NCBI GenBank assembly: GCA_034422075.1
Contig: DAOUJX010000060.1
Coordinates: 5,515 to 69,514, forward strand
Length of the DNA stretch: 64,000 nucleotides
Direction of reading: 5' to 3'
From: Dehalococcoidia bacterium
GTDB taxonomy: Bacteria; Chloroflexota; Dehalococcoidia; Lucifugimonadales; Australimonadaceae
The notes under the pieces are model-generated. The model had not been told where the DNA came from. It ran no database searches and saw only the letters and a list, made by a program, of their open reading frames with translations. Numbering within the stretch: the stretch's first letter is position 1; every line of letters starts with the position of its first letter. The position numbers were made by a program, and so were the translations under genes. This document shows, piece after piece, positions 1,748 through 36,059 of the stretch.

Positions 1748-1868
1748 AGCAAGCTAATGGTAACACCGGGCCAATCGCCCTCACCGTCAAACCTTCGCGC
1801 GGGTCAGGCCGGGTCCCGGCCTAGCGGGAGTTCGGGGGCGTCCGCCCCTCGACAGCCCCTTCTTCCTT

Positions 1869-1889
1869 GTCATTTCCGGGAATGAAGAG
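1869..1889. repeat. REP-like hairpin, short variant (GTCATTTCCGGGAATGAAGAG)
   Basis: Intergenic palindrome TTCCGGGAA with a GAATGA-GAAG tail resembling the copies at 2211, 17689 and 36146. Confidence 0.35.
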
Positions 1890-2210
1890 AGGGTGCACAA
1901 AGGTGCGAGGGTGCCGTCGCACACCCCTTCCTTCCGCCCACTGCATGATGACGCCTCGTGCCCCTACGCTGTCACTGCGCGCCGCTGCGAGGCCAAACGC
2001 CCCTCTCCGTACCAAGTATGGATCAGGCGCCTGCTGCCGGCGAATTGGGACCATACGGGACACTTTCGAATGGTCTCCCTCATCGCCCAAGCGTAAATTG
2101 GCGTCGCTCACGCCCCAATGGCCGTGTTCCAAACACCTCGCTCGCCTCTGCCCCAGTAGCGGTTAGGAGTGGCGCGTTCCTCCGCCAGCGCACCCGTTAG
2201 CAATTGGTGC

Positions 2211-2245
2211 GTCAGATTCCTGCCTTCGCAGGAATGGCGAAGATG
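2211..2245. repeat. REP-like hairpin family copy (ATTCCTGC-CTTC-GCAGGAAT + GGCGAAG)
   Basis: Perfect 8-bp stem read directly. The tail GGAATGGCGAAG is shared with the copies at 17689 and 36146. Intergenic. Confidence 0.5.
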
Positions 2246-2306
2246 GCCGCGTGCTAATATCGCCGGACGGTATGGTGCGGCGCGACTTGGGCGCGAAGAG
2301 TGAACG

Positions 2307-3578: not shown

Positions 3579-3582
3579 CGCC

Positions 3583-5046: not shown

Positions 5047-5083
5047 GTGGAAAGGGTACCAGCGGGTGGTATCATGGCGCGCA

Positions 5084-5590
5084 ATGGCCTCCACTATGCG
5101 GCGCGCTATAGAGGTGCAGGTCTTCCCCCGCTTTCGGGCGCAGGCGCAGCCTCGGTGGGTGCGCTCCGTCGCGGAGGCGGCGCTCGATACAGCCGACCCC
5201 GGCGGTAGTAGCGCGCTGTCGATCGTCATCGCCGACGACGAAACGGTGCGCGACCTCAACAACCGATTCCGAGGCGTCGACGAGGTGACGGACGTGCTAG
5301 CGTTCGGGGCGACGAGCGAGAACGCGCCAACACCGTCAGACGCCGCGTTTCCGCCTCTCCCCGGCGAGGAGTCGCTCGGCGAGGTGGTCGTCTCACAGCC
5401 GCAGGCGGCACGACAGGCGCCCGCCAACGGCGCCACCGTCGAACGGGAGACGGCACTGCTCATCGTTCACGGCGTCCTGCACCTGCTCGGCCACGAGCAC
5501 GCAGAGCCGGAGGGAGCTGCTGCGATGCGGCGTCTCGAGGAGCAGGCGCTCGGCGCCATCTCCAGCCAGAGGACGGAGGCGCGCACATGA
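5084..5590 (+). CDS. ybeY: rRNA maturation endoribonuclease YbeY
   Basis: Zinc motif HGVLHLLGHEH. Start taken at the internal ATG at 5084, because the longer ORF overlaps tilS. Confidence 0.9.
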   Translation: MASTMRRAIEVQVFPRFRAQAQPRWVRSVAEAALDTADPGGSSALSIVIADDETVRDLNNRFRGVDEVTDVLAFGATSENAPTPSDAAFPPLPGEESLGEVVVSQPQAARQAPANGATVERETALLIVHGVLHLLGHEHAEPEGAAAMRRLEEQALGAISSQRTEART

Positions 5591-7260: not shown

Positions 7261-7299
7261 GGCAACAAACGATACACCGGTGACCAAGGAGGCGGGCGT

Positions 7300-7632
7300 A
7301 TGAAGTGGAAGCCGCCGGGCGGCCAATCCAGCAAGAACCTGCTCAGGCAGGCACAGAAACTGCAAGAGGCGCTCGCCAAGGCCCAAGACGAGCTGGACGA
7401 GGCGACGGTCGAGGCGTCGGCGGGAGGGGGCGCGGTCAGGGCCGTCGCCACCGGCAAGCAGACGCTCAAGTCGATCGTCATCGATCCCGATGCGGTCGAT
7501 CCCGCCGACGTAGAGATGCTGCAGGACCTCGTGCTGGCCGCCGCGAACGAGGCGCTGGAGAAGTCGCGGACGATGGCAAACGAGCGATTGGGCGCACTCA
7601 CCGGCGGCCTGAATATCCCCGGCCTGACGTAG
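7300..7632 (+). CDS. ybaB: Nucleoid-associated protein YbaB/EbfC
   Basis: 110 aa with a family-typical pattern (QKLQEAL...GGGAV...IDP...DxEMLQDLV). Sits in the conserved dnaX-ybaB-recR order. Confidence 0.9.
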   Translation: MKWKPPGGQSSKNLLRQAQKLQEALAKAQDELDEATVEASAGGGAVRAVATGKQTLKSIVIDPDAVDPADVEMLQDLVLAAANEALEKSRTMANERLGALTGGLNIPGLT

Positions 7633-7638
7633 GGTGCA

Positions 7639-8259
7639 ATGACGCAGGAGCATCCCTCGCTCGCAGCACCGGTTGCGCGCCTCATCGAGCAGTTTCACAA
7701 GTTGCCGGGCATCGGCCCCAAGTCGGCGCAGCGGCTCGCCTACTACCTCATCCGGATGCCACCAGAGGAGGCGCAGGCGCTTGCGCAGGCCATCGCGTCC
7801 GTCAAGGAGCGCACCACCTTCTGCTCGGAGTGCCAGAACATCACGGAGAGCGACCCATGCACGACGTGCGCCGACCCAGGGCGTGACCGAACGCGCATCT
7901 GCGTGGTGCAAGAGCCGCTGGACGTGCTTGCGATGGAGCGCACGGGCGCCTACCGCGGCCTCTACCACGTACTTCACGGCGTCCTAGACCCCATGTCGCA
8001 CATTACGCCCGATGACCTGCGCATCCGCGAACTGCTGCCGCGCTTGACCAACGGCGAAGTGCAAGAGGTCATCCTCGCCACCAATCCGAACGTGGAGGGG
8101 GAGGCAACGTCCATGTACGTGCAGCAGCTCATCGCGCCCCTGGTGCCGGAGGTGAGCCGTCTAGCGCGCGGGCTGCCCGTCGGCGCAGACCTCGAATATG
8201 CCGACGACCTCACGCTGGCTCGCGCGTTCGAGGGCAGGCAGCGGATGGGGAGTCCCTAG
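7639..8259 (+). CDS. recR: Recombination protein RecR
   Basis: HhH N-terminus (LPGIGPKSAQRLA), C4 zinc finger (CSECQN..CTTC), and a Toprim domain. Confidence 0.95.
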   Translation: MTQEHPSLAAPVARLIEQFHKLPGIGPKSAQRLAYYLIRMPPEEAQALAQAIASVKERTTFCSECQNITESDPCTTCADPGRDRTRICVVQEPLDVLAMERTGAYRGLYHVLHGVLDPMSHITPDDLRIRELLPRLTNGEVQEVILATNPNVEGEATSMYVQQLIAPLVPEVSRLARGLPVGADLEYADDLTLARAFEGRQRMGSP

Positions 8260-8279
8260 CAGCCGCGCGGCGGGGCGGC

Positions 8280-9590
8280 TTACGCTACCTCTAGGGCGGT
8301 GGTAATGGCGCGTTGGAGAGCGGAGTCAGTGTGAAGGCGCTCGGAGACCTTGCGGACCGAGTAGAGCACGGTCGCACGGTCGCGGCCACCGAAGAGACGC
8401 CCTATCGCAGCCGGCGAGAGCTTGAGGCGGTCGGCCAGCAGGTACATCGCCACCTGGCGCGCCGTCGAACTGGCGCGGTCGCGGCGCGCCCCGGCCAATT
8501 CCGAGGGCATCAGCCCGTAGTGCTTCGAGACGGCATCGATGATGGCCTCGGGGGTAGAGGGCGGTGACGGACGCGTTTCGCGCTCCATCACGCTCTCGAC
8601 CAGCGCCGCATCGAGCGGAGCGTTGGCGAGCTGCGCGTGGGCTGCTATGCGGTTGAACGCGCCTTCCAACTGGCGCACGTTGCGCACGGGGTGTTTGGCG
8701 AGGACGTCCAACACGTCGTCAGGGACATCAAGGCCGCGGCGGGCGGCGCACCGCGCAAGGATGCCGCGCCGCGTCTCCTCCGTCGGCTTGGTGATGTCCA
8801 CCTGCAACCCCCACTCAAGGCGCGAGCGCAGCCGCTCATCAAACAGCGGCAGACGGGTGGGGTCCTGGTCCGCGGTGACGACGATCTGGCGTCCTCGCTC
8901 GTGCAGGACGTTGAAGATATGGAAGAAGGTCTCCTGCGTGCTCGACTTGCCACCGAGAAACTGGATGTCATCGACCAAGAGCAGGTCCGCCCCGCGGTAG
9001 CGCTGGTTGAATTCCGCCACGCGCCGCTCGCGTATTGCCGACGTGTAGTCGTTGGTGAACTCTTCACTGGTGACGCACAAGGGCGAGCGTCCGGCGGCCT
9101 GCGCACCGTGCATGATGGCGCGCAACAGGTGCGTCTTGCCCAGCCCCGACGTCCCGTAGATGACGAGCGGGTTGTATGAGCCCCGCGCGTTATCGGCGAT
9201 GGCGCTTGCCGCTGCGAATGCGAGATGGTTGGACGGGCCGACAACAAATGAGTCGAAGGTGTAGCGCGCGTCGGGAAGCGGCGCAGCGGGTTCATCATCG
9301 TCTGGAGACGCGCCAGCGGCACCGGAAGAAGAGGGTGGACGGAAAGTGATCTCGTAGGGCGTGCGTGAGACGGCGACGACGGCGGCGCGGACTTGGCCGA
9401 GGAGCCGCTCACGCAGCCATTCGGCGGCCAAGGACGACGGCGTGCCGACGACGAGGGAGCCGTCCTCGATGGCGATGCCGGTGGTGCCCGACAGTAGCGT
9501 GTCGAACATGGGGCGCGGCACCTGGAGTTGGAGGCGGCCAAGCGCGGCCTCCCAGACCCGTGCAGCACGGCTGACTGTAGCGCTGGACAT
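8280..9590 (-). CDS. dnaA: Chromosomal replication initiator DnaA
   Basis: DnaA N-terminal pattern (VWEAALGRLQ...), Walker A GTSGLGKTHLL, box VII, and a C-terminal DNA-binding domain (GGRDRATVLYSVRKV). Internal ATG at 9590 chosen as the start. Confidence 0.9.
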   Translation of the reverse strand: MSSATVSRAARVWEAALGRLQLQVPRPMFDTLLSGTTGIAIEDGSLVVGTPSSLAAEWLRERLLGQVRAAVVAVSRTPYEITFRPPSSSGAAGASPDDDEPAAPLPDARYTFDSFVVGPSNHLAFAAASAIADNARGSYNPLVIYGTSGLGKTHLLRAIMHGAQAAGRSPLCVTSEEFTNDYTSAIRERRVAEFNQRYRGADLLLVDDIQFLGGKSSTQETFFHIFNVLHERGRQIVVTADQDPTRLPLFDERLRSRLEWGLQVDITKPTEETRRGILARCAARRGLDVPDDVLDVLAKHPVRNVRQLEGAFNRIAAHAQLANAPLDAALVESVMERETRPSPPSTPEAIIDAVSKHYGLMPSELAGARRDRASSTARQVAMYLLADRLKLSPAAIGRLFGGRDRATVLYSVRKVSERLHTDSALQRAITTALEVA

Positions 9591-25595: not shown

Positions 25596-26651
25596 CTACG
25601 CCCCTGTCTCGTCTAGCGCCAGCGCCAACTCGCCCATGACGTCGGCCAGGAGGCGGACGGACGCAATGGCGGTGGCGTAGTCCATCCGCGTCGGGCCAAT
25701 GACGGCGACGGCGCCCGACTCGCTGCCCGTTCCGCCGTAGCGTGAGAGCACAAGGCTGTATGGGTGAAGGTGCTTGTTGGCGTTCTCGGAGCCGATGATG
25801 ACCCGCACCTCGCCCGGGCGGAGTTGCTCCGCTACTAGGTCGCGCAGGGTCGCCTCGTCCTCCAGCACGGCGACTGCCTCACGCGCGTGGCTGCCCTCGA
25901 CGAACTCCGGCTGGCTGAGCATGTGGCGCAGGCCGGCGACGAAAGGGTGCTCGGCCGCGGCCGAGGCATGCACGCGCATCACGCGGCTTGCCTCGTCCAC
26001 CGCCGCATCGGCGAAGTCGTTGGCGCCCCGCTGCGATGCCCACACCGTCTGCACATCATCGGTTGCTGCGCCTCGTAGGCTATCGGTCAACAGGCTGGAG
26101 AGCTGCGCCAGTTCCTCCGGTGTGACGTCGTCGGGAGCCTGGATGGTGTGCTGCAGCACGTGGCCTTCGTGCAGCACCAACACGAGCAGAACGTGGCTGC
26201 CGTAGAGGTGGACGAGGTGAAGTTGCCTGATTCGCGCATCGCGCAGGCCGGGCGGCGCGGCGACGGCGACATTGTGCAGCGCCCCGGAGAGCACGGTGGC
26301 CGCCGTGCGTGCGGCGCCCTCGAAGTCGGCGGCGTCGAGGTGCGCCATTTCATCGCGTACGCGCCGCTCGAACGCAGGCGAGGGCTGCGCCGCCTCGGTC
26401 GAGCGCTCGACGTAGAATCGGTAGCCGCGGTCGGCAGGTACACCGCCGGCGGAGGTGTGGGGGCGGACGATGAAGCCACGCTCCTCCAACTCCGCCATGT
26501 CGTTGCGGATGGTGGCGGGGCTGACCTTAAGCGAGTGGCGTTTGACGATCTGCTGCGATGCGACGGGCGCAGCGGTGCGTATGTAGTCGTGGACAAGCAA
26601 CCGTAGAATCGCCTGTCGGCGCTGATTCAGGGTGATGGCGTCCGTTGCCAT
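25596..26651 (-). CDS. hrcA: Heat-inducible transcription repressor HrcA
   Basis: N-terminal wHTH (LNQRRQAILRLLVHDYI..APVASQ) and full-length HrcA pattern. Upstream of dnaJ. Confidence 0.9.
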   Translation of the reverse strand: MATDAITLNQRRQAILRLLVHDYIRTAAPVASQQIVKRHSLKVSPATIRNDMAELEERGFIVRPHTSAGGVPADRGYRFYVERSTEAAQPSPAFERRVRDEMAHLDAADFEGAARTAATVLSGALHNVAVAAPPGLRDARIRQLHLVHLYGSHVLLVLVLHEGHVLQHTIQAPDDVTPEELAQLSSLLTDSLRGAATDDVQTVWASQRGANDFADAAVDEASRVMRVHASAAAEHPFVAGLRHMLSQPEFVEGSHAREAVAVLEDEATLRDLVAEQLRPGEVRVIIGSENANKHLHPYSLVLSRYGGTGSESGAVAVIGPTRMDYATAIASVRLLADVMGELALALDETGA

Positions 26652-26738
26652 GAGCGCGCTGCCGTCTTCGTAGCGTAGTTTTCTGACTTTATCGCGGTGT
26701 GCGCATGAGGGTCAACAGAGCGAATCGGCCTGCGCCGA

Positions 26739-26748
26739 CACCCTAACT
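26739..26748. repeat. Target-site duplication, left copy (CACCCTAACT)
   Basis: Identical 10-mer immediately outside both terminal inverted repeats. Confidence 0.85.
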
Positions 26749-26765
26749 GGCTTTGCACAGAAACC
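26749..26765. repeat. Terminal inverted repeat, left (GGCTTTGCACAGAAACC)
   Basis: Exact reverse complement of 34750-34766. Confidence 0.9.
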
Positions 26766-26805
26766 CCCGCCCGCGCGCGAGTTTTTGTGCATGCCGCTTG
26801 GGATT

Positions 26806-28107
26806 TTATGCAGATGCGGTTTGCCGAGGGATGAGCAGGTCCATCATGCCCAGCTCGTAGGATGCGTGAATCAGCACGCTGATGTTGTGGCAGAGGAACT
26901 TGAGCAGGACTTCGTTGACCTGGGCGACGGGCGTCCGTGACCGGACGGATGCCCCGTACTTGTTCTTGACCATGCTGAAGGTGCTCTCGACGTTGGAGCG
27001 CTTGTGGTAGTGCGCACTGAACTCTTCGCTGTTGAACTTGACGTAGTGATAGTACCGCTCCCACTGGCTGTCCCGTGGCAGGTCTGGTGACACAGGGCGG
27101 GACTTGGCTTTCAGCGGGATGTACGCCCTCGCGCCGACTGCCTCGACCGCACGCACGTTCGCCCTGCTCAGGTAGGCTTTGTCGGCGGAGACCTCTTCGA
27201 TGTTGAAATGCCGCGCCGTCGCCTCCACGAAGGGCGCCAGGTAGCGGGTATCGTTGGTCGGGGTTGCTGTCGCCTCTGCCTGGGTGATGATGTTCGTCTT
27301 CACACCGCAGATCGCGTGAGCCTTGACCCATAGGATGTTGCGGATTGGTCTCCCCCACTTGTGGTCAAAGTAGCGGCCGTAGACCGACGTGCCGAACCCC
27401 GTGGAGTCAATGGCGAAATCGTGCTCTACCGCAGCCAGGGGGATGGCGCTCTGCTCGATGAGCTGCTTCAGTACGGGAGTCAGCGCTGGGTCTTCCATGT
27501 ACTTCCACAGCGACGCCACCGAGGGGGCCTTGGCAATGAGGCCGTCCGTGTTGGCGCTCCGAATGCCCGTCATGGCCCGCCTGGTCGAGAATCCCCCGTA
27601 GACCTTGAGGCTTGCCGCAAATACCACATCGGACAACGGCAGGCGGGGCCGCCCCGTTCCGCTGGCTGGAGGCTGCTCGATGGTGCTGCAAAGGTCGCGG
27701 AGCAGGGTCGCAAAGTGCTCTTGCTCGTGCTCCTGCGCTGCGTTGTAGAGCGCCCAGGGCTGGCCATAGGTGGTGCCGGTTGGGAGCGTTTCCAGGTCGG
27801 CTCCCAGCCCCAACTGTCCGTCCCGTCGTTTGACGACCATTTGGACAGCGTAGATGTGCTTGCAGAGGCCCGGCCGTTCCTCAAAGTCTGGGCAACTGCA
27901 ATAGGGCTCGGCGCGGTCGACGAGGACATAGTAGGTGCCTTTGCCGGACTGGCTGGGCACCTTGTAGCCCCTTCCGGACTCCCTGATGGGCGCGAGCGCT
28001 GCTATGGCCATTCCGCGCTGCTTGCGGCCCGCGTCTCCGTCGTCGGGTGCTCCGGGGCCCAAAGCAGTGATGAGGTTGGGGTCAAAGTCGAGTCGCTGAT
28101 TCTTCAT
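26806..28107 (-). CDS. DDE transposase (IS4/IS5 superfamily) with N-terminal SWIM-type zinc finger
   Basis: SWIM signature CSCPDF...CKH and a perfect Y(2)R(3)E(6)K signature (YHKRSNVESTFSMVK). The ATG at 28107 has AGGTGA upstream. An alternative GTG lies at 28131. Confidence 0.85.
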   Translation of the reverse strand: MKNQRLDFDPNLITALGPGAPDDGDAGRKQRGMAIAALAPIRESGRGYKVPSQSGKGTYYVLVDRAEPYCSCPDFEERPGLCKHIYAVQMVVKRRDGQLGLGADLETLPTGTTYGQPWALYNAAQEHEQEHFATLLRDLCSTIEQPPASGTGRPRLPLSDVVFAASLKVYGGFSTRRAMTGIRSANTDGLIAKAPSVASLWKYMEDPALTPVLKQLIEQSAIPLAAVEHDFAIDSTGFGTSVYGRYFDHKWGRPIRNILWVKAHAICGVKTNIITQAEATATPTNDTRYLAPFVEATARHFNIEEVSADKAYLSRANVRAVEAVGARAYIPLKAKSRPVSPDLPRDSQWERYYHYVKFNSEEFSAHYHKRSNVESTFSMVKNKYGASVRSRTPVAQVNEVLLKFLCHNISVLIHASYELGMMDLLIPRQTASA

Positions 28108-28142
28108 CTGTTCACCTATGGCGAGCACCACAATCTAGGCAC

Positions 28143-28224
28143 ACAGTACTATACATTGTATGGTATTGTCAATTTCTAGCCGGAATCTGTTGCGTTGACA
28201 GTCCTATACACTGTCTCTTACTGT
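28143..28224. promoter_or_regulatory. Back-to-back promoters (both TTGACA-N18-TACTGT) with a 19-bp palindromic candidate operator
   Basis: Minus strand: TTGACA (28167-28172), TACTGT (28143-28148). Plus strand: TTGACA (28195-28200), TACTGT (28219-28224). The palindrome TACTATACATTGTATGGTA (28147-28165) lies in the minus-promoter spacer. Confidence 0.4.
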
Positions 28225-28230
28225 CCTGTC

Positions 28231-28470
28231 ATGAACGACGTGCAGCGGAAGATTGCGGCTCTACAAGAGCGGGGTTGGACCTTGGCCGCCATCGCCGATG
28301 AGCTTGGCGTGACGCCTAATGCCGTCGAGAAGTGGAAGGCCGGCGTCCGCAACGCTACCAACCTCAAGTCCATTCTGGAGCACTTGGAGCGGCTGCAGCA
28401 CCGGCAACGTATCCCGAAGCAGCGCCGATACCAACTGGGGCGTTCACACAGAGCCGTGAGGAGTCGTTGA
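28231..28470 (+). CDS. Small helix-turn-helix DNA-binding protein (80 aa)
   Basis: HTH segment WTLAAIADELGVTPNAVEKW. The ATG lies 6 nt after the putative -10, so the transcript may be leaderless. Confidence 0.65.
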   Translation: MNDVQRKIAALQERGWTLAAIADELGVTPNAVEKWKAGVRNATNLKSILEHLERLQHRQRIPKQRRYQLGRSHRAVRSR

Positions 28471-28538
28471 TGGCTAAAGGCAAGAGCTTCAATTGGGATC
28501 GGCCCAAGCGCTGGGAGCGCAAGGTAGTGGAGGCCTAG
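28470..28538 (+). CDS. Possible 22-aa micro-ORF (MAKGKSFNWDRPKRWERKVVEA)
   Basis: The ATG overlaps the HTH stop (TGATG) and has GAGGAG upstream. Very short, so speculative. Confidence 0.25.
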   Translation: MAKGKSFNWDRPKRWERKVVEA

Positions 28539-28542
28539 CGTT

Positions 28543-30109
28543 ATGGGCGCTAAAGAACGCCGTGCTTCTCGCGCGCGCGTGACGAGTCCGCGCCTGCGGC
28601 CCCCCCCCGAGTCCATACCTAGGGGGACATGCCCTCGTCTGCGCGGACAACCTCGACATACTCAAGGGACTGCCCCCCGAGTGCGTTGACCTCATCTACT
28701 TAGACCCCCCCTTTCAGAGCAATCAGTTCTATGTTGCCGCCTTCGGCGACAAGGGGATGGTGGCGCGGCAGTTGCGCGACATATGGCGCTGGACTGCAGG
28801 GACGCAGACAGCGTTCGACAGCCTGCCACACGGCCAGTTGCTTGACACTCTACAGGGTATTCGCTTGCAAGTAGGGGAGAAGTCGCCAATGGCCGCGTAT
28901 GCGGTGTTCATGGGGCGGCGGCTTGCTGAGATGAGAAGGGTGCTCAAGCCGACGGGGAGCATCTATCTACATTGCGACTGGCACGCGAACGCCTACCTAC
29001 GGCTGCTCATGGATGCAGTGTTTGGGGCAGGCAACTTCAGGAATGAGATCGCGTGGTGCTATGACACGGCTGGGCGGACGCAACGCTACTGGAACCGCAA
29101 GCACGATTCCATTTTCTTCTACTCAAAGATGCAAGGGTGGACGTTCAACCCATTACGCATCCCTCGGCGCAACCTAACGGAAGGTTGGGAATCGTGGTAT
29201 TCGCTTACTGATGAGGATGGGCGCCGGTATCAAATAGACGGCAAGGGGTACAAGTACTACGCAGATGAAGGGCGCTTGGCAAATGACTGGTGGGATGATC
29301 TTCCCGCCCTGCACGCCCATAGGGATGAAGAACGAATAGGCTACCCCACACAGAAGCCGGTTGCCCTGCTGGAGCGCATCATCAAGGCCAGCAGCAACGC
29401 AGGTGACCTAGTGCTCGACCCATTTTGTGGGTGCGGTTCTGCGGCGGATGCAGCATACGCCAATGGCAGGCGCTACCTCGGTATCGACATCAGCGGGATC
29501 GCGGTACGTGTTATGCAGCAGCGAATGGAGTCGCGCGGCGATTCCCCATCGGTCTATGGGCTGACGTGGGATGAGATGGAATGGGAGGAGTTCGAGTATC
29601 GAGCACTCGCGCAGCGCGACGACGTGGAGGACGGTATACCAGGCTGGGCATGGGCAGAGGACAGGGTAGCAGCGCTGCTAAACGCGGTGCCGAACGAACG
29701 CAAGGTGGGCGACGGCGGCGTGGACGCGCGCTACTACGGCGCGATGGACATCGAACAACAGCAGGGAATCGTGATTCCCATACAGGTGAAGATGCACCGC
29801 ACGGCCTCGGTTGGGCGCCCCGACATGGATCGGCTGTTGGGCACGCAGACTGCGATGCAGAACCGAGGCGTGCACGCGCCGATGTCCCTCATGGTGAGTC
29901 TCTACCCGCCGCCGGAGTCCCTGCGTGTGTTTGCGATGGAGCAGGGGCGGGTGGCGCTGACGACACACGAAGGTGGGCATGAGGAATACCCGCGTATGCA
30001 GGTATTGAGCGTGGAGGAGATGTTGAGGCACGGAGAACGTCCGAAGTTGCCACCAGTGGACCCTCGCTCACTCGTCGGCGATACACAAACCCGAACCTCA
30101 TTGGTCTAG
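28543..30109 (+). CDS. Beta-class N6A/N4C DNA methyltransferase fused to a C-terminal Mrr-type (PD-(D/E)xK) nuclease domain; frame broken at a C9 tract
   Basis: Motif IV DLIYLDPPF comes before motif I VLDPFCGCGSA. C-terminal GDGGVDARYYG...VIPIQVK matches the Mrr catalytic pattern. The ATG at 28543 (GGAGG upstream) is +1 out of frame with the body. One fewer C at 28600-28608 restores a single ORF. Confidence 0.8.
28600..28608. repeat. C9 homopolymer at the frameshift point of the methyltransferase-nuclease gene
   Basis: Nine consecutive C counted directly. Confidence 0.95.
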
Positions 30110-30289
30110 ATGCGCCGACGGCGTAAGAGCATCCTCACCTTGGCCACAGACAATTGAAGTCTTCCACCGGCTCGCATCGACGTTTTGTCCCTCTCGACAT
30201 CGGACAAAAGGGTGGACGCTCGACATCTGATTGACGCCCCACAAACCGTGATGAGACCATCCATGGCGAGGATACGTTTCCATCATTGT

Positions 30290-30318
30290 TTGTTATTGTT
30301 AGTCAGTTAGTGTAAAAT
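30290..30318 (+). promoter_or_regulatory. Sigma70-type promoter TTGTTA-N17-TAAAAT
   Basis: AT-rich island 43 nt upstream of the AAA+ ATPase ATG, with hexamers at canonical spacing. Confidence 0.5.
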
Positions 30319-30360
30319 CCATCACATGACCGATCGGGCGCACGAGAGAGGCAGAGCCAT

Positions 30361-31632
30361 ATGAGCAAGAGGCGCAGGGCGAGCAAGAGCAGCCGGGAAA
30401 AGTTGATTAACCGGGAAATCCAGCTAGGTGAGGTGTTTACGCCGGCGGCGCCCATTGACCAACTGAGCCTTTTCGCTGGGCGTATTTCACAGAGGCGCTC
30501 GGTCGTCGACGCGATCTTTCAGCGCGGCCGCCACGCAATATTGTTTGGGGAGCGTGGTGTTGGCAAGACTTCGCTCGCCAGCGTCTTGCGCGAGTACCTT
30601 GAGAGCCTCGGACAGATCATCGTTGCTCCTCGTGTGAACTGCGACGACGGCGATGACTACTCAACGATCTGGTTCAAGGCTTTCGGTGACCTGCAGGTCA
30701 TTGAGAGCCGTCGAGGTATGGGCTTTACACCGGAGGTGCAGGCGATCGTTCGCTCAGCGAGCGACTCAATCGGAAACCTAGAATCTGTCACCCCTCACTA
30801 CGTACGGCAGTTACTAGAACAGCTCGGCGAGCAAACGATTCTAATTGTGATTGTCGACGAATTCGACCGTGTGGCCAGCCGGGTAGGGACGCAATTCGCT
30901 GACACCATCAAGATGCTCTCCGATCAGTCAGTGCCCGTGACACTGGTGCTCGTCGGGGTCGGCGAGACAGTCAGCTCGCTCATCAGCGAGCACGCTTCGA
31001 TTGAGCGCGCACTCGCTCAGGTGCGCCTACCCCGTATGTCTACATCCGAACTGCAAGAAATCGTCGACGGCGGGCTCTCAGAAGTCGGGATGTCCGCCGA
31101 GACAGTCGCACGGGACCGGATCGCTGCACTGTCGCAGGGGCTCCCGCACTACACTCACCTCATAGCGCTTTATGCGGCTCGTGATGCGAACGATGCCGGA
31201 TTGGACGTGGTAGGGGTCGAGAACGTCGCCGCAGGAATCCGCGAGGCGGTAGAGAACGCTCAGGAAACGATTACAACGACGCACCATCGGGCCGTGATGA
31301 GCACTCGGTCTGACTCACTCTACCGCCACGTTGCGCTCGCCTGCGCGCTTACTGAGACCGATGAGCGGGGCTACTTCACAGCAGGCGCGGTGCGGGAGCC
31401 GATGGCGGCAATTATGGGCAAGCCGTACGCGATTCCCGCGTTCGCAAAACACATGAACGAATTCTGCGGTGACCTGCGCGGCCCTATCCTTGAGAAGTTC
31501 GGAACGCAGCGGAACTACCGGTTCAGATTCCATAACCCCCTGCACCCACCCTACATAATCATGAGCGGAATCGCCCAGGGGCTGATCGCTGAGGACACGG
31601 CAGTTAGCATCCAGAACGGCGCGAGTGGCTAG
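30361..31632 (+). CDS. AAA+ ATPase, ORC/Cdc6-like (archaeal-ATPase type) with C-terminal winged-helix-like region
   Basis: Walker A GERGVGKTS, Walker B ILIVIVDEFDRV, a sensor-like region, and a basic N-terminus (KRRRASKSSREK). Confidence 0.8.
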   Translation: MSKRRRASKSSREKLINREIQLGEVFTPAAPIDQLSLFAGRISQRRSVVDAIFQRGRHAILFGERGVGKTSLASVLREYLESLGQIIVAPRVNCDDGDDYSTIWFKAFGDLQVIESRRGMGFTPEVQAIVRSASDSIGNLESVTPHYVRQLLEQLGEQTILIVIVDEFDRVASRVGTQFADTIKMLSDQSVPVTLVLVGVGETVSSLISEHASIERALAQVRLPRMSTSELQEIVDGGLSEVGMSAETVARDRIAALSQGLPHYTHLIALYAARDANDAGLDVVGVENVAAGIREAVENAQETITTTHHRAVMSTRSDSLYRHVALACALTETDERGYFTAGAVREPMAAIMGKPYAIPAFAKHMNEFCGDLRGPILEKFGTQRNYRFRFHNPLHPPYIIMSGIAQGLIAEDTAVSIQNGASG

Positions 31633-31689
31633 GGAAATCCCGCGGTTATCGCGCGCGCGAGTCTTGAGGCACCTAGGGGGAGTCCCAAT

Positions 31690-31749
31690 TTTCAGAACCG
31701 CACGCTCTTCCACGGTGACAACCTAGCCATTCTGCGTGGGATGAACTCC
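31690..31749 (+). pseudogene. Remnant of a second DNA methyltransferase N-terminus (FQNRTLFHGDNLAILRGMNS)
   Basis: Paralogous at the protein level to ALVCADNLDILKGLP of the intact gene. No start codon and no DPPF follow. Runs into the 3' end of the Fic gene. Confidence 0.45.
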
Positions 31750-31794
31750 GCGTGGGAAGACCCGGGCACCGCATCGGGCGATTATTGGCAGGCC

Positions 31795-32400
31795 CTAGGG
31801 CTCACCAATTTGTTGGCGAACCAGTTCCCCGATGAGCGACATGAGTGGGATGAGGTCGCCGCGATCCGCCCACTCTAATGCTTGCACGTAACGCGAATGG
31901 TGCGCACCTTCGAGTAACTCAGGCAAGAGTGGGCGGCCTGGTAGCAATCCCCCGACCTTAAGGCAGAGAGTAAGGTAGCACACAGCCCGTGCAGTGCGCC
32001 CATTGCCGTTCACGAAGGGGTGGACAGAGTTGATGCGCCACAGCGCGTAAGCCGCCAACCGCAACTCCGACCAATCCGCCCAAGCATCATTCACTTGGCG
32101 GACGAATTGGCTCATCAGGTCAGGTACGCATGTGTGGTCGGGCGGGCGATAGCGTACCACCCCCTGATCATCCATCACCGTAACGTTCGTTGTGCGGTAT
32201 TGGCCTGCCGTCGAGTGGAGCAAGACGACAGCCTGATAGTTTATTGCCTTGATACGCCAGTCGCTCAACTGGGGCGACTGCGTTTGCAGAGCAACCTTGA
32301 TGAGGGTCTGAAGGAAGTGGTAGTAGCGCTCAGAGTTTTCAGCTTCGACGGCTCGATAGAGTGGGTTCTCTTCGCCGCCCTTGAGCTGGGCGAGGTTCAA
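31795..32400 (-). CDS. Fic-domain protein (putative AMPylase/toxin)
   Basis: Fic motif HPFVNGNGRTAR (31987-32022). 201 aa. Last gene of a four-gene operon. Confidence 0.9.
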   Translation of the reverse strand: MNLAQLKGGEENPLYRAVEAENSERYYHFLQTLIKVALQTQSPQLSDWRIKAINYQAVVLLHSTAGQYRTTNVTVMDDQGVVRYRPPDHTCVPDLMSQFVRQVNDAWADWSELRLAAYALWRINSVHPFVNGNGRTARAVCYLTLCLKVGGLLPGRPLLPELLEGAHHSRYVQALEWADRGDLIPLMSLIGELVRQQIGEP

Positions 32401-32405
32401 GACAC

Positions 32406-32618
32406 TTACTCTGTGATCGGCCCGTAGCGGTCATCGAGCATCTGCATGACCTCCTCGCGAGACATCGTGCTCCTTCTGCCACTGAAGCCCATGACTGCGG
32501 AGACGAGTTGCTCCCGCTTCTCTTTCGGAGTCATCAGAGGGTAGCGTTTCGTGGCCTCTGCTAGCAGATCACTGGTTTCTTTGAACCACGCTTCGTCCTT
32601 CCCGAATTTTGCTGCCAT
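32406..32618 (-). CDS. 70-aa helical protein, candidate Fic partner/antitoxin
   Basis: Stop lies 5 nt before the Fic start. Charged and helical. No canonical (S/T)xxxE(G/N) motif; the closest is TMSREE. Confidence 0.45.
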   Translation of the reverse strand: MAAKFGKDEAWFKETSDLLAEATKRYPLMTPKEKREQLVSAVMGFSGRRSTMSREEVMQMLDDRYGPITE

Positions 32619-32650
32619 CGCTACTCTCCTTTGCAGTTACGGTAAGGGCA

Positions 32651-32920
32651 TCAGCGGCTGACGGCGAGGCGCCTGAGATGTACTTGCCCTTCATCGTCAT
32701 CTATATCGAAGTAGAGGCGGAGGGGCAGTTGCGCCCCCCTGATGTGTATCACATGAAACCGAGTCCCAGGGACCATCGGGGCCAAGTGGGGAGTAAGAGC
32801 AAGGTCGCGGTAGTACCCTGCGAGAATCTCATCCCAACGCATGAAGGAGCCGACAATGCTCTCAACTTGGGCTTGGAACTGTGCCGACTCGACCATTGTG
32901 TAGGAGGGCCTACCGTCCAA
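32651..32920 (-). CDS. Small RelE/ParE-like toxin candidate (81-89 aa)
   Basis: C-terminal pattern LRLYFDIDDDEGQVHLRRL resembles the RelE/ParE fold. Overlaps the stop of the upstream DUF4065 gene. Start is the TTG at 32920 or the ATG at 32896. Confidence 0.4.
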   Translation of the reverse strand: MDGRPSYTMVESAQFQAQVESIVGSFMRWDEILAGYYRDLALTPHLAPMVPGTRFHVIHIRGAQLPLRLYFDIDDDEGQVHLRRLAVSR

Positions 32921-33473
32921 GACCGAGTTCTTCAGTGAGCGCTAGGCTATGCTCAATGTCTTCCTCGTCAATATACTCCAATGAAAGCCATGCGGACGAA
33001 TAGGGGATGTCCTCCATTGGCTTTGCGGCCAGCCAGCCCCATTCTAGATGAGACAGCTCCGACGCCTCTCTTGCCGTCATGTGCCAAAGCTCTCCAATGA
33101 CCTCATCGAGGATTTCCACTTCCTCTGGACGTAGGATGCCTTCCGTCGGTTCGTCCAAGGCGACGATGCGGTGTTGGACGCCAGTAAAATAAGGGCGAGG
33201 CTCAATGCGGATGGCCTCCTTGCGTATCAGCCTTCGCCTTGCCTCAAGCATTTGCTTCGGCGCAGGGCCTTGATCTAACCGATAGTACGTCGCTCCGGTG
33301 ATAGGCTCACCCAGCCTCCGGTATGCCTCAAAGTCGGCGAAGTAGAGGATCTTATTGAGCTTGACGGCTCCGAAGCGCTCATCCCCCTCGCTGTGCTTGG
33401 CGATATAGATGATGGCCTCATCGAATTTGCGTTCGTCGAATGTTTCTATGTAGGGGCGGCCCACTTCCGCCAT
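32910..33473 (-). CDS. Panacea/DUF4065 (SocA/GepA-like) antitoxin-domain protein
   Basis: Core pattern AVKLNKILYFADFEAYRRLGEPITGATYYRLDQGPAP. 187 aa. SD CAGGAGG upstream. Confidence 0.75.
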   Translation of the reverse strand: MAEVGRPYIETFDERKFDEAIIYIAKHSEGDERFGAVKLNKILYFADFEAYRRLGEPITGATYYRLDQGPAPKQMLEARRRLIRKEAIRIEPRPYFTGVQHRIVALDEPTEGILRPEEVEILDEVIGELWHMTAREASELSHLEWGWLAAKPMEDIPYSSAWLSLEYIDEEDIEHSLALTEELGLGR

Positions 33474-33532
33474 GACGCCTCCTGACTAGTTTGAGCCTCG
33501 ACTAATCCTAGCCTCCTTGAGGCTGACAGGCC

Positions 33533-33561
33533 CATATAATACAAATATACACAATTGTCAA
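33533..33561 (-). promoter_or_regulatory. Sigma70-type promoter TTGACA-N17-TATATG for the DUF4065...Fic operon
   Basis: Read on the minus strand in an AT-rich island 60-88 nt upstream of the ATG at 33473. Confidence 0.55.
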
Positions 33562-33644
33562 CACCACCCTCAACCTCTTAGTGTCACGAGATCTTATCCT
33601 GCGGCGGGCTGACTGCCCTCCAGCCCCATCGCTAGACTGGATGG

Positions 33645-33661
33645 GGTTCTTGTGCAAAGCC
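33645..33661. repeat. Internal copy of the right terminal repeat (GGTTCTTGTGCAAAGCC, 15/17 identical)
   Basis: Same orientation as the IR-R at 34750-34766. Confidence 0.6.
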
Positions 33662-34109
33662 AAGGCACCCCAGGAGTCTCGGTTGGTTGAGGAATGCCTC
33701 GCGGTGCTCCTCGTAGATCTGCTCTTTGTCCATGCCCTCGTATACAGAGCCTGAATCCATGTGGCGCGACCTTCTCCCTAGTCCTCGCCCTCGTCCTTGT
33801 CGTTGTCTTGTGCTTGCCGTTCCCTGTACAGCATGTCTAGGGGCAGCGACCGCCAAGGGCAGTCGGGCTCGACACAGAGCGTGTCCGCCCTAGCGGTCTC
33901 GATCCCGCACGTGCATATGCCCATGGGGCCTCCCAGGGAAGATCCCGGCCGTCATGGCCAAGAACCGCCGACCACTTGCGGCCTGTAGTAAAATACGCTC
34001 ACGCGGCATACAGCAAAACAGGGGCATTAGGCGTGCCCCTGGATGCTCAGCGTAGGCTGGAATGCACTAACGTCGTAAAGCGCATTCTACTTCCTGCTCA
34101 AAGGATGTC

Positions 34110-34146
34110 AAGCCCGCGCGGAGACAACTCGCGCGGGCTTTTGCTT
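34110..34146 (+). terminator. Intrinsic-terminator-like hairpin (AAGCCCGCGCG-9nt-CGCGCGGGCTT + TTGCTT)
   Basis: 11-bp GC-rich stem followed by a T-rich tail on the plus strand only. No annotated plus-strand CDS lies upstream. Confidence 0.5.
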
Positions 34147-34349
34147 GGCCCTCGCGGAGAAAGGAAGTGCGCCTATGCCTACCCGAAAAATAGGCATCCG
34201 CCGGACAGTGCGCGTGGGAACACGCGTAACGGTCAAACGGAAGGTAACCGTTAGAACCACCCGGCGACGATAGCCCAAGGACAGGCACCCTGATCTTTGG
34301 TCAGGGTGCCCATCCTACACACCTCACACCACTAGGTAGGAGGAAAGGC

Positions 34350-34688
34350 GTGGCTAGGAATGTCGTCAGGTCAGGGCTGCACCACAGAAAAAGCAGGAGG
34401 AGCCTGGTGTCCCAAGATGAGGTGCTGATATGTGTCGAATGTAGAGTCGAAGCCCAAGTTGAAGGTGTCGACGGTCAGATTGACCGAATAACCTGTCCAT
34501 CGTGTGCCGTGTCGGTCGAAGGCGATAGCGGTCTCGAGATGGCACTCAAACAATTGAGCCATGACACTATCCGTGAATTCCAGGAGCGCCTCAAGCGCAC
34601 ATTTGGAAAAGGCGGCCCGGTCAGCTATAGCCCCGGCCGCCTCAATAACCCTAGAAGCCCATTCATCGTCGGTATACCTGACTCGTAG
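34350..34688 (+). CDS. Small zinc-ribbon protein (CxxC...CxxC), hypothetical
   Basis: CVEC and CPSC pairs. GTG start with AGGAGG 9 nt upstream. Confidence 0.5.
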   Translation: MARNVVRSGLHHRKSRRSLVSQDEVLICVECRVEAQVEGVDGQIDRITCPSCAVSVEGDSGLEMALKQLSHDTIREFQERLKRTFGKGGPVSYSPGRLNNPRSPFIVGIPDS

Positions 34689-34711
34689 GGGCTAGTCTTC
34701 TCTGGGAACGG

Positions 34712-34743
34712 GGTTGATGTGCAAAGAGCCGAGTTTTTGTGCA
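34712..34743. repeat. Subterminal repeat boxes (GGTTGATGTGCAAAGAGCC + CGAGTTTTTGTGCA)
   Basis: The first box resembles the IR. The 14-mer CGAGTTTTTGTGCA also occurs at 26778-26791 in the same orientation. Confidence 0.55.
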
Positions 34744-34749
34744 GGAGGC

Positions 34750-34766
34750 GGTTTCTGTGCAAAGCC
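34750..34766. repeat. Terminal inverted repeat, right (GGTTTCTGTGCAAAGCC)
   Basis: Exact reverse complement of 26749-26765. Confidence 0.9.
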
Positions 34767-34776
34767 CACCCTAACT
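34767..34776. repeat. Target-site duplication, right copy (CACCCTAACT)
   Basis: Identical to 26739-26748. Confidence 0.85.
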
Positions 34777-34904
34777 ACAACATGTTGTGGATTCGTTTCG
34801 TACAGACCCCAATTTGTGCTAACGAGGCTTCCATTGCCACACTTGACGTTTTTTTGCGCAGAGTGTTAGCGTGGCTCAATACACCTTGATGCGGAGGGGG
34901 CGCC

Positions 34905-36059
34905 GTGATTTCACCGGCTCGTATCCAGGTCACTGAACTGCGCAGGACATACGGGTTCGAGGAGGTGGCGATAGTCCCGGGCGACGTTACGACCAACCCC
35001 GAGCTCTCGATCACTATCCTCGAAATCGGCCCCTTCCAATTCACCACGCCCGTCATCGCCTCGGCGATGGACGCCATCGTCGATGCCAACTTTGCCGGCC
35101 TAATGGCCAAGGCGGGCGGCCTTGGCGTCATGAACCTCGAAGGCGTCTACTCCCGCTACGAGGACCCCGCCGAGGCGCTTGAGGCCATCACCTCCGCCCC
35201 CCGCGAGAGCGTGACGGAGGTGATGCAGAGCGTGTACTCGCAGCCGTTGCGCGATGACCTCGTTGCGCAGCGTGTCGCCGACATCAAGGCGACGGGCGCG
35301 GTTGCCGCCGTCTCCGTCACTCCGCAGAGCGCCAAGCGGCTGGCTCAGGTCGCGGTCGAGGCAGGCGCCGACATCATCGTCGTCCAATCCACCGTCACCA
35401 CGGCGCGGCACATCTCCAACTCCTACCACGGGCTGCGCTTCTCCGAACTTATCCCGCTCATCAGAGTTCCGGTCGTTGTCGGCAACTGCGTAACCTACAG
35501 CGCGGCGCTCGAACTGATGGAGCAGGGCATCGACGGGTTGTTGGTCGGCGTTGGACCGGGCGCGGCCTGCACGACGCGCGACGTTACGGGCGTCGGCGTA
35601 CCGCAGGTGAGCGCAACGCTCGACTGCGCGGCAGCGCGAGACGAGTACTTCGCGCGATCCGGCAAGCACGTTGCGGTTATCACCGACGGCGGGATTCGCA
35701 CGGGCGGCGACCTATGCAAGGCCATCGCAGCGGGCGCCGACGGCGTCATGATTGGCACACCGTTCGCGCAGACGCTGGAGGCGCCGGGCCGCGGCTTCAA
35801 CTGGGGCATGGCGAGCCCGCATCCGGCGCTGCCGCGCGGCACGCGCATCAACGTCGGCGTGGAGGCATCTCTCGAGCAGGTTCTCTTCGGGCCGAGCCAC
35901 CGCACCGACGGGACGCACAACCTGATGGGCGCACTCAAGGTCTGCATGTCGATGGTCGGCGCGCAGACTATAGAGGAGTTCCACGAGCGCGCCGAGCTAG
36001 TGGTAGCGCCCACCATCGCAACGGAGGGCAAGGTCTTCCAGCGCGCGGGGCGGATCTAA
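34905..36059 (+). CDS. IMP dehydrogenase-family protein lacking a CBS insert (GuaB3-like)
   Basis: TIM-barrel IMPDH/GMPR pattern (TTPVIASAMD, GVGPGAACTTR, ITDGGIRTGGD). 384 aa. Confidence 0.85.
   Translation: MISPARIQVTELRRTYGFEEVAIVPGDVTTNPELSITILEIGPFQFTTPVIASAMDAIVDANFAGLMAKAGGLGVMNLEGVYSRYEDPAEALEAITSAPRESVTEVMQSVYSQPLRDDLVAQRVADIKATGAVAAVSVTPQSAKRLAQVAVEAGADIIVVQSTVTTARHISNSYHGLRFSELIPLIRVPVVVGNCVTYSAALELMEQGIDGLLVGVGPGAACTTRDVTGVGVPQVSATLDCAAARDEYFARSGKHVAVITDGGIRTGGDLCKAIAAGADGVMIGTPFAQTLEAPGRGFNWGMASPHPALPRGTRINVGVEASLEQVLFGPSHRTDGTHNLMGALKVCMSMVGAQTIEEFHERAELVVAPTIATEGKVFQRAGRI

Follow-up and report, generated by a model that had tools for sequence, protein, structure and literature searches.

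A Panacea Protein Gene Pair and a Fic Enzyme Gene Pair Lie Head-to-Tail in a Low-GC Island of a Dehalococcoidia Bacterium

Organization of the Locus

The window, by which is meant the whole stretch of 64,000 nucleotides that was analysed (contig DAOUJX010000060.1 of a Dehalococcoidia bacterium), contains an island of ∼8 kb that sits between hrcA and an IMPDH-family gene and is set apart from its flanks by a low GC content (56–60% versus 67–69%). Direct reading of the sequence confirmed that the four minus-strand open reading frames described in the initial annotation are present in this island (Table 1). The identities proposed for their products were also upheld. The DUF4065 protein, hereafter PanA, matched Pfam SocA_Panacea PF13274 well above the cut-off (68.1 bits against 25.7, E 1.6e-18), as the Fic protein did PF02661 (54.5 bits against 24, E 2.2e-14). 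The RelE/ParE-like 89-aa protein had no match in Pfam, and its assignment was instead secured by a confident fold from AlphaFold and Foldseek, while an AF2 model of the 70-aa protein comprised the expected helices, three in number (pLDDT 79). The island also encodes an IS DDE transposase, an N6_N4 methylase (DNA methylase) and a STAND/AAA-like ATPase; nothing credible was returned by an Rfam scan of the island.

Table 1. Features of the four-gene locus, with positions in the window
Feature	Position	Strand	Remarks
AT-rich promoter-like patch 5′ of PanA	33533..33573	minus	candidate; direct reading and consensus scan
PanA	33473–32910	minus	187 aa; ATG start; AGGAGG 6 nt upstream
89-aa RelE/ParE-fold gene	32920–32651	minus	TTG start; 11-nt overlap with PanA 3′ end
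Intermodule spacer	32619–32650	minus	32 nt; contains AAGGAG, the RBS of the 70-aa gene
70-aa three-helix protein gene	32618–32406	minus	after 32-nt spacer
Fic gene	32400–31795	minus	201 aa; TTG start; 5 nt past 70-aa stop

The Fic Enzyme and Its 70-aa Partner

Inspection of the Fic polypeptide reveals a Fic motif, HPFVNGNGRTAR, that extends from His127 to Arg138. In an alignment of 35 family members the motif H-P-F-x-N-G-N-G-(R/H)-T-A-R was invariant, with H127, N133, G134 and R138 present throughout and R135 mostly Arg, being His in two members. The fifth position of the motif, canonically Asp or Glu, is Asn in 35/35 members, and this Asn aligns with the Asp of the FICD motif IHPFIDGNGRTSR. 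The canonical adenylylation motif, HxFx[D/E]GNGRxxR, is not found in the family. The Doc motif, which contains Lys (HxFx[D/N][A/G]NKR), is likewise absent, the Fic protein carrying GNGR and not (A/G)NKR, and the score obtained with TIGR01550 DOC_P1 was 17.2 bits, below the cut-off of 38.65. The closest solved core is that of FICD (E 6e-21), with VbhT matching at E 5e-4, and partial matches were obtained to the PADLOC models SoFic (2e-17) and PDC-S04 (3e-11). A possible cis inhibitory motif, PELLEG, in the window protein was rejected because the family consensus at that point is PELLR.

The Fic family is large (223 protein clusters and >500 metagenome matches), and the pair that it forms with the 70-aa family is found in diverse metagenomes and on alphaproteobacterial plasmids; relatives of the pair also adjoin restriction-modification genes or integrases. 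Among the best 80 Fic-centred metagenome loci, the 70-aa family was encoded directly upstream of Fic in 73; in the remaining 7 the absent gene falls at a contig end. Most often the two genes are spaced by a 4-nt overlap. The pair is also present at five further loci (L002–L006) and on two RefSeq plasmids, from Phaeobacter and Rhizobium.

Comparison of the 70-aa family with Pfam, NCBIfam and the PDB, by profile and by fold, yielded no VbhA, FicA, Fic_N or other curated family, and Foldseek with the 70-aa model gave no match under E = 1. The inhibitory motif [S/T]xxxE[G/N] is absent from both the window protein and the family consensus: the invariant Ser40 precedes xxxG rather than xxxE, and the C-terminal ‘EG’ of distant family members is replaced by ‘YG’ or ‘FG’ in the clade of the window protein. 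A short match (‘ElreQrVSF’) to 4eqq, a phage TP-J34-type Ltp lipoprotein repeat, had a whole-sequence E of 6e-4 but a per-domain E of 0.25 and was not trusted.

The arrangement of a 70-aa gene immediately 5′ of a 201-aa Fic enzyme would constitute a class I-like Fic module. Such systems (VbhT/VbhA and FicT/FicA; PMC5033356) similarly comprise a single-domain Fic protein of ∼200 aa, with no conserved cis inhibitory motif in the Fic chain, and a helical protein of ∼60–70 aa encoded immediately upstream, the stop and start codons often overlapping. The 70-aa protein may keep Fic inactive by binding, and Fic, once freed, would modify an essential target and so bring about growth arrest, with addiction or abortive infection as the possible function. 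The module nevertheless differs from class I systems in that its small partner has neither the [S/T]xxxE[G/N] motif nor detectable VbhA/FicA homology, in that Asn replaces Asp/Glu in HPFxNGNGRTAR and in that the Fic core is nearer to FICD-like enzymes than to VbhT. Given the invariant Asn motif and an obligate partner that lacks the canonical inhibitory glutamate, the chemistry or the mode of inhibition may differ from that of VbhTA and FicTA. The Fic domain match and the setting in a defence or mobile island are shared with SoFic and PDC-S04 of PADLOC. SoFic, however, is a class II protein of 361–374 aa with its own inhibitory helix, and no small partner is included in the PADLOC definitions of either system, as far as the library shows.

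These same differences leave room for another reading, in which the pair is not a toxin-antitoxin (TA) module at all, the 70-aa protein being a DNA-binding or adaptor regulator and Fic a regulated, non-lethal modifier that is possibly inactive in AMPylation. Besides a partner that resembles neither VbhA nor FicA and the loss of the metal-binding Asp/Glu, a few weak HTH-type matches in single 70-aa family members and the homeodomain/HTH proteins in the Foldseek tail of the 70-aa model, at non-significant E-values, point in this direction. A precedent is EcFicT, a class I Fic protein whose motif is degenerate and for which no activity is known (PMC5033356). Against it stand the invariant catalytic His, Asn and second Arg (the first, usually Arg, gives way to His in two members), the strict pairing of the 70-aa and Fic genes, often with start/stop overlap, the patchy distribution of the pair, its carriage on plasmids and its position beside restriction-modification genes, integrases and IS elements, and the matches to the defence-associated SoFic and PDC-S04 models. 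On balance, a function other than TA is a credible but unlikely alternative for this pair.

PanA and the 89-aa RelE/ParE-Fold Protein

PanA is a stand-alone Panacea/DUF4065 protein in which the domain spans residues 39–147. An alignment of the PanA family showed that the domain is followed by a conserved segment, W147...IPY(156–158), and then by an acidic C-terminal tail. The family comprised 88 homologues. When genomes were scanned with the single sequence no locus was confirmed, and the family alignment was the query that worked.

In the best 80 PanA-centred genome loci so obtained, the 89-aa family was encoded directly downstream of PanA in 50 at E ≤ 1e-3, and a relaxed threshold added 9 (59/80). 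The loci with this pair represent mostly different MAG species, and the pair is found mostly in Dehalococcoidia/Chloroflexota MAGs. The 11-nt overlap of the two genes was also present at two other loci (L008 and L169), and the closest homologue of the 89-aa protein follows a 187-aa PanA with this overlap. This homologue is 53% identical across residues 1–89, a span that speaks for the TTG start. Initiation at an alternative in-frame ATG (32896) would give a product of 81 aa.

No matches to the 89-aa protein were returned by a word-indexed search, and exhaustive HMMER was required to recover its ∼25 full-length homologues of 81–108 aa. The AlphaFold model (pLDDT 87.8) has a beta-alpha-alpha-beta-beta-beta topology, and in a Foldseek search of the PDB the top ∼40 matches were all RelE, HigB2, YoeB or ParE toxins (probability 0.87–1.00, TM up to 0.77). 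By contrast, no significant sequence-profile match to ParE_toxin, RelE, YoeB or HigB was found for the protein. ParE_toxin was matched by 4/25 homologues, with a best E of 0.021 that is sub-threshold, and a profile search of the PDB gave YoeB at E 0.056; the YoeB match and one to HigB-2 were also sub-threshold. The family is acidic (pI 4.2–6.6 in 24/25 members), and its conserved positions are F15, W29, P44, GSxxRWDEI, PGT and YFxID; across the alignment, neither the sheet nor the C-terminus has a conserved Lys, Arg, His or Tyr.

Relative to the RelE/ParE superfamily (RelE, HigB2, YoeB, ParE and PfiT), the 89-aa protein therefore shares the fold, the size of ∼85–95 aa and TM scores of 0.6–0.77 to solved toxins, but it is only 10–23% identical in sequence with no significant profile match, it has an acidic rather than basic pI, and it lacks both the conserved RelE/YoeB-type catalytic residues and a C-terminal helix after beta4. 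The acidic pI and the absence of conserved basic, His or Tyr residues, unlike in the RelE/HigB/YoeB RNases, make the activity of the protein, and even its toxicity, uncertain. The basic surface and catalytic residues of the ribosome-dependent RNases are missing, and a ParE-like (gyrase) or other activity would be compatible with what is seen.

PanA proteins are known to neutralise toxins through direct binding (PMC8832971; Ernits et al. 2023, PMC10440598), and their described partners include ParE-like, mRNA-interferase and Fic/Doc toxins (Kurata et al. 2022, PMC8832971). By analogy with these validated PanAT systems, the translational coupling of a stand-alone PanA to the 89-aa protein through the overlap would form a module in which PanA directly binds and neutralises its partner, which may be freed on some trigger. 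The tight coupling of a stand-alone Panacea protein to a small partner with a toxin fold is common to both, as is a two-gene architecture conserved in many genomes, and ParE-like and mRNA-interferase partners have been reported for PanA-PanT. The pair described here, a candidate known from sequence and predicted fold, differs in that its partner family is acidic and goes undetected by Pfam or CDD-type models and in that its subfamily occurs chiefly in MAGs of Dehalococcoidia/Chloroflexota.

It might be argued from the acidity of the 89-aa family, its want of conserved catalytic-type residues and its sub-threshold ParE_toxin, YoeB and HigB-2 matches that the protein is not toxic and serves PanA as an accessory, adaptor or decoy. 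However, its confident structural neighbours are all TA toxins, its gene is located beside, and coupled to, that of a Panacea antitoxin, in keeping with the PanAT pattern, and ParE-type members of the fold work without RNase residues (PMC10440598). A non-toxic role is accordingly held to be decidedly unlikely, and the 89-aa family is put forward as a candidate for a new PanT family that is centred on Dehalococcoidia and escapes standard models.

Linkage of the Two Pairs

The initial annotation had left undecided whether the four genes form two stacked modules or a single four-component system in which the Panacea protein controls Fic. To assess linkage, counts were made over the best 80 PanA-centred genomic loci and the best 80 Fic-centred metagenomic loci. 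The 70-aa/Fic pair was near PanA in 0/80 of the former, 79 of which had >1.2 kb of sequence downstream, and neither PanA nor the 89-aa family was near Fic in any of the latter (0/80), 39 of which had >900 nt of sequence 5′ of the small gene. For each half, the nearest relatives (80–81% protein identity) are unlinked. L169 and L170 lie on separate contigs of the same sample, and no PanA is present in the 1.9 kb upstream at L170.

The same division was apparent at the nucleotide level. In blastn comparisons, relatives of the PanA pair aligned to 33483–32650 only, ending one base past the 89-aa stop codon, while relatives of the Fic pair aligned to 32602–31804 only, beginning 16 nt into the 70-aa gene. 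That homology ends at 32650 on one side and at 32602 on the other places the junction between the modules in the 32-nt spacer. A search for repeats that might mark cassette boundaries or attC-like sites, both around the modules and between them, found only short ones at chance level.

The four-gene order did not recur among the 160 loci and is, on that count, unique to this locus; the pairs occur independently elsewhere, and many genomes carry one or the other as two tightly packed genes. The two pairs also differ in taxonomic range, that of PanA being mostly from Dehalococcoidia/Chloroflexota MAGs and that of Fic from varied metagenomes and alphaproteobacterial plasmids. These observations bear out the stacked reading and count against the single system offered as its alternative; a four-gene order confined to this locus, with the pairs independent elsewhere, is the outcome that the initial annotation had itself named as refuting its proposal.

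Promoter-Like Sequences and Transcription

A single promoter had also been proposed for the four genes. The sequence TTGACA-N17-TATATG was indeed read directly on the minus strand at 33561–33533, but its description as near-consensus is overstated, given that the −10 hexamer ends in G where T is conserved. The consensus scan of the patch gave a 9/12 match, and the candidate that it listed was a second, overlapping one, TTGAGG-N18-TATATT (33573–33544). The TTGACA hexamer also shares bases with a palindrome of 8 bp, ACAATTGT. Across the region, the number of promoter-like sites did not exceed that in shuffled sequences (2 found versus 1.4 ± 1.3 expected). In scans of the region, neither the four genes nor the gaps between them contained a terminator-like site, and no internal promoter-like site lay within the 89-aa gene or elsewhere 5′ of the 70-aa gene. 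Given the absence of both, co-transcription of all four genes from a single promoter stays plausible at this locus, as judged from the sequence, and would, if it occurs, be a by-product of juxtaposition. It could allow some regulatory cross-talk between the modules at this locus alone.

Interpretation of the Locus

Taken together, the separate recurrence of the pairs and the homology breakpoint make it very likely that the locus consists of two independent, horizontally mobile two-gene modules placed head-to-tail in a small mobile/defence island. TA modules commonly pile up next to one another in mobile or defence islands, and the locus would thus be one such case, with the four-gene system as such of little import. 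No promoter belonging to the Fic module itself can be recognised at this locus, so its transcription probably depends on read-through from that of PanA, and such read-through would reflect an accident of insertion rather than a designed coupling.

A bolder possibility is that the juxtaposition has created a working two-effector unit here, the 70-aa/Fic genes having lost their promoter and being transcribed only from that of PanA, such that the Panacea trigger or autoregulation gates an unrelated Fic enzyme of an uncharacterised but widespread Asn-motif class; this is considered very improbable. A genuine four-component system, in which PanA as sensor or antitoxin controls Fic via the RelE-like and 70-aa proteins from one promoter, has still less to recommend it. 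The tight packing of the genes on one strand with no terminator-like or internal promoter-like site would suit it, and PanA-Fic/Doc pairs are known elsewhere (PMC8832971), but the absence of co-occurrence in 160 related loci, the unlinked closest relatives of each half, the breakpoint inside the spacer and the conserved coupling geometry that each pair has of its own largely refute it as a conserved arrangement.

With two independent modules as the preferred reading, the interest of the locus shifts to its constituent families. The Fic family is common but uncharacterised, occurring on plasmids and beside restriction-modification genes, and the 89-aa family would add a candidate PanT family that the source annotation mis-called on the wrong strand. 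In place of the 89-aa gene, the gene caller of the public source assembly selected an 86-aa ORF on the plus strand (32678–32938). That this ORF, and not a spurious 89-aa ORF, is what is actually encoded between PanA and the 70-aa gene is hardly conceivable in view of the ∼25 homologues of the same length, the confident RelE-fold model, the retained synteny with PanA and the annotation of the 89-aa ORF as a gene in other assemblies, and the 86-aa ORF was judged a mis-call.

Gene Pairs and Their Relatives

All four head-to-tail minus-strand ORFs claimed by the initial annotation were found in the sequence, and its domain assignments held in HMM searches and structure prediction, with Pfam matches for Panacea and Fic, a RelE/ParE fold for the 89-aa protein, and three helices for the 70-aa protein. 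It had offered two readings, either two stacked toxin-antitoxin (TA) modules (PanA with the 89-aa protein, and the 70-aa protein with Fic) or a single four-component system. The best 80 genome loci with PanA relatives and the best 80 metagenome loci with Fic relatives were collected, and their ORFs were classed by the four family HMMs. Among the PanA-centered loci, the 89-aa family was present in 50, and in 9 more at a relaxed threshold; 70-aa/Fic genes were present in none, and 79 of the 80 offer >1.2 kb of downstream sequence in which to see them. Both 70-aa and Fic genes were present in 73 of the Fic-centered loci, the remaining 7 losing one gene at a contig end, and PanA/89-aa genes in none; in 39 of these 80, >900 nt of sequence precedes the small gene.

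The closest relatives are likewise unlinked. An 81%-identical Fic (locus L002) and a 57%-identical Fic (L003/L004) are each preceded, at 5–10 nt, by a homologous 69–72-aa gene and lack a Panacea gene within 5 kb; the small gene-Fic pair recurs in relatives at ∼50% identity (L005-L007). In L008 and L169, the gene for the best 89-aa homologue overlaps that of a preceding 187-aa PanA by the same 11 nt. L169 (80%-identical PanA pair) and L170 (80%-identical Fic pair, without PanA in the 1.9 kb upstream of Fic) come from one metagenome sample on separate contigs. By blastn, L169 aligned only with 33483-32650, ending one base past the 89-aa stop codon, and L008 only with 33483-32826; past their alignments, the two differ from the window and from one another. 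L002 and L170 aligned only with 32602-31804, starting 16 nt into the 70-aa gene. The breakpoints at 32650 and 32602 therefore identify the 32-nt spacer as the junction.

The four genes are not one system; the outcome is the one that the initial annotation had specified as refuting coupling. The four-gene order as a coupled unit was not borne out, the other pair being absent from both sets of loci and homology breaking at the spacer, and a four-component system is not supported, given that the pairs recur apart. The reading as two stacked TA modules is supported by the occurrence of each pair alone as a two-gene unit in relatives. By analogy, each module would belong to a known kind of TA pair, with toxicity and neutralization predicted. 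The arrangement as posed is of little interest; the Fic family retains a modest interest, as does the acidic RelE-fold family of candidate PanT toxins that includes the 89-aa protein.

Features of the four-gene locus and its surroundings (window coordinates)
Feature	Coordinates	Strand	Remarks
hrcA	25596-26651		flanks island
IS DDE transposase	26806-28131	-	SWIM finger; in island
N6_N4 DNA methylase	28757-30109	+	in island
STAND/AAA ATPase	30361-31632	+	in island; weak PADLOC mad8 match; converges on Fic gene
14-nt imperfect tandem repeat	31731-31760		TCTGCGTGGGATGA / TCCGCGTGGGAAGA
Fic ORF	32400-31795	-	201 aa; TTG start, 5 nt beyond 70-aa ORF
70-aa ORF	32618-32406	-	after spacer
Spacer, 89-aa ORF to 70-aa ORF		-	32 nt; contains AAGGAG
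89-aa ORF	32920-32651	-	TTG start inside last 11 nt of PanA
86-aa ORF	32678-32938	+	public assembly's gene caller
PanA	33473-32910	-	187 aa; ATG start; AGGAGG upstream
TTGACA-N17-TATATG	33561-33533	-	promoter string
TTGAGG-N18-TATATT	33573-33544	-	consensus scanner
8-bp palindrome	33548-33559		ACAATTGT
GC-rich hairpin + T-run	34041-34019	-
Promoter-like site to hairpin	34019-34111	-	TTGACA-N16-TAGAAT; predicted ∼65-nt transcript
IMPDH-family gene	34905-36059		flanks island

Transcription Signals

The promoter string TTGACA-N17-TATATG reported upstream of PanA is present, with the conserved final T missing from its −10 hexamer; the consensus scanner picks the overlapping TTGAGG-N18-TATATT instead. 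Promoter-like sites in the region were not above shuffled sequence (2 versus 1.4 ± 1.3). No terminator-like site was found inside or between the four genes, and a lenient scan (≥8/12) of the 89-aa gene, ahead of the 70-aa start, found no σ70-like site. Upstream of PanA, the TTGACA hexamer shares bases with the palindrome; the tandem repeat lies in the spacer separating the Fic stop from the convergent ATPase gene. Each may be an operator or may mean nothing.

PanA and the 89-aa Protein

PanA matched Pfam SocA_Panacea at 68.1 bits (E 1.6e-18), well over threshold; NCBIfam gave sub-threshold matches only, for PanA and for Fic. It is a stand-alone Panacea protein without an HTH domain, in which a W147...IPY segment is conserved and the tail is acidic. 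Relatives of the pair lie overwhelmingly in Dehalococcoidia/Chloroflexota MAGs (80 genome loci), which makes a Chloroflexota genome the probable source of the window. Dozens of unrelated toxins (ParE-like, mRNA interferases, MqsR, toxSAS, and Fic/Doc) are partnered by Panacea antitoxins, which form complexes with them, and stand-alone Panacea can neutralize directly (PMC8832971, PMC10440598). PanA would accordingly be expected to resemble these, neutralizing the predicted 89-aa toxin directly.

The 89-aa ORF had no match in Pfam, NCBIfam, PADLOC, or PHROG, and a word-index search returned no homologue. Exhaustive HMMER searching gave 33 matches, ∼25 of them 81–108-aa proteins aligned over their full length. 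The closest (53% identity) aligns across residues 1–89, which supports the TTG start; starting at the in-frame ATG at 32896 instead would shorten the protein to 81 aa. Conserved segments of the family alignment are GSxxRWDEI, PGT, and YFxID, the first being the most conserved surface motif, at the start of helix 2. The AlphaFold model from this alignment (pLDDT 87.8, pTM 0.73) has β-α-α-β-β-β topology, and a Foldseek search of the PDB with it returned only RelE, HigB2, YoeB, YafQ, ParE, or PfiT toxins among the top ∼40 matches (TM ≤0.77). At the sequence level, links were no more than suggestive, with matches to ParE_toxin in 4 of 25 members (best E 0.021) and to YoeB (E 0.056). The 86-aa plus-strand ORF called opposite this gene was judged a mis-call because the 89-aa ORF has homologues, fold, and synteny; annotation of Chloroflexota MAGs probably misses members of this small-toxin family.

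The family is acidic (pI 4.2–6.6 in 24 of 25 members), which is unusual because known toxins of the RelE/ParE fold are typically basic, and its alignment has no conserved basic, His, or Tyr residues at the RelE/YoeB catalytic places. Both features make it unlikely that the 89-aa protein is a classical ribosome-dependent RNase; this predicted toxin may have a ParE-like or some other activity.

Fic and the 70-aa Protein

The Fic ORF matched Pfam Fic at 54.5 bits (E 2.2e-14), and its family is large, with 223 clusters at E ≤1e-5; in metagenomes, at least 503 matches were confirmed. His127, Asn133, Gly134, and Arg138 are invariant in the family alignment, and residue 135 is mostly Arg, with His in two members (P0004 and P0017). 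Whereas the canonical adenylylation motif is HxFx[D/E]GNGRxxR (PMC5033356), the invariant family motif, HPFxNGNG(R/H)TAR, always has Asn at position 5 (residue 131 of the window Fic), the place of the metal-coordinating Asp/Glu. The Asp of the FICD motif IHPFIDGNGRTSR aligns to this Asn, FICD being the nearest solved core (E 6e-21); VbhT was a distant match (E 5e-4). A link to defense comes from the PADLOC models SoFic (2e-17) and PDC-S04 (3e-11), both matched by the window Fic. No conserved cis inhibitory motif was found in the family alignment. [quoted passage not shown]

The 70-aa model consists of three helices (residues 2–23, 31–45, and 54–65; pLDDT 79). Ser40 is invariant and Glu33, Gln37, Thr53, and Gly66 near-invariant in its family (consensus ...T..E...QRVSFxxG.....S..TR..V...L...EG), from which the [S/T]xxxE[G/N] inhibitory motif is absent; where distant members have EG near the C-terminus, the window's clade has YG or FG. 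No match was found in Pfam, NCBIfam, PDB sequences, or PDB folds. The family profile gave a marginal match to PDB 4eqq (whole-sequence E 6e-4, per-domain E 0.25), the “...T..ElreQrVSF” segment aligning with both repeats of this phage Ltp-type surface lipoprotein; the similarity is probably chance or a shared short helix motif.

In the Fic module, two of the features tested differ from the class I definition: the motif has Asn, and the partner carries no inhibitory-Glu motif. We interpret the module as a class-I-like Fic toxin/effector whose partner is non-canonical. The partner may block the ATP site, block target docking, or act on DNA.

On Phaeobacter and Rhizobium plasmids, where RefSeq labels the 70-aa family “hypothetical protein,” the pair adjoins an integrase or a type I restriction enzyme, and further relatives lie beside or within restriction-modification loci. 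In L005 (ENA ERZ25067264 contig, 789-8633), the pair and an IS1595 transposase lie between hsdM and hsdS/hsdR, a position within a type I restriction-modification locus that is consistent with module insertion into defense loci.

Island Context

The four genes lie within an ∼8-kb island (∼26000-35000) of 56–60% GC, against a 67–69% background, between hrcA and the IMPDH-family gene. The methylase and STAND/AAA ATPase might form a defense system of their own. The top promoter-like site of the region, TTGACA-N16-TAGAAT (11/12), precedes the hairpin and T-run by ∼40 nt, predicting a ∼65-nt transcript in the ORF-poor stretch at 33.6–34.9 kb. The fold z-score is −2.1, and no Rfam match was found. 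This transcript could be a small RNA or leader.
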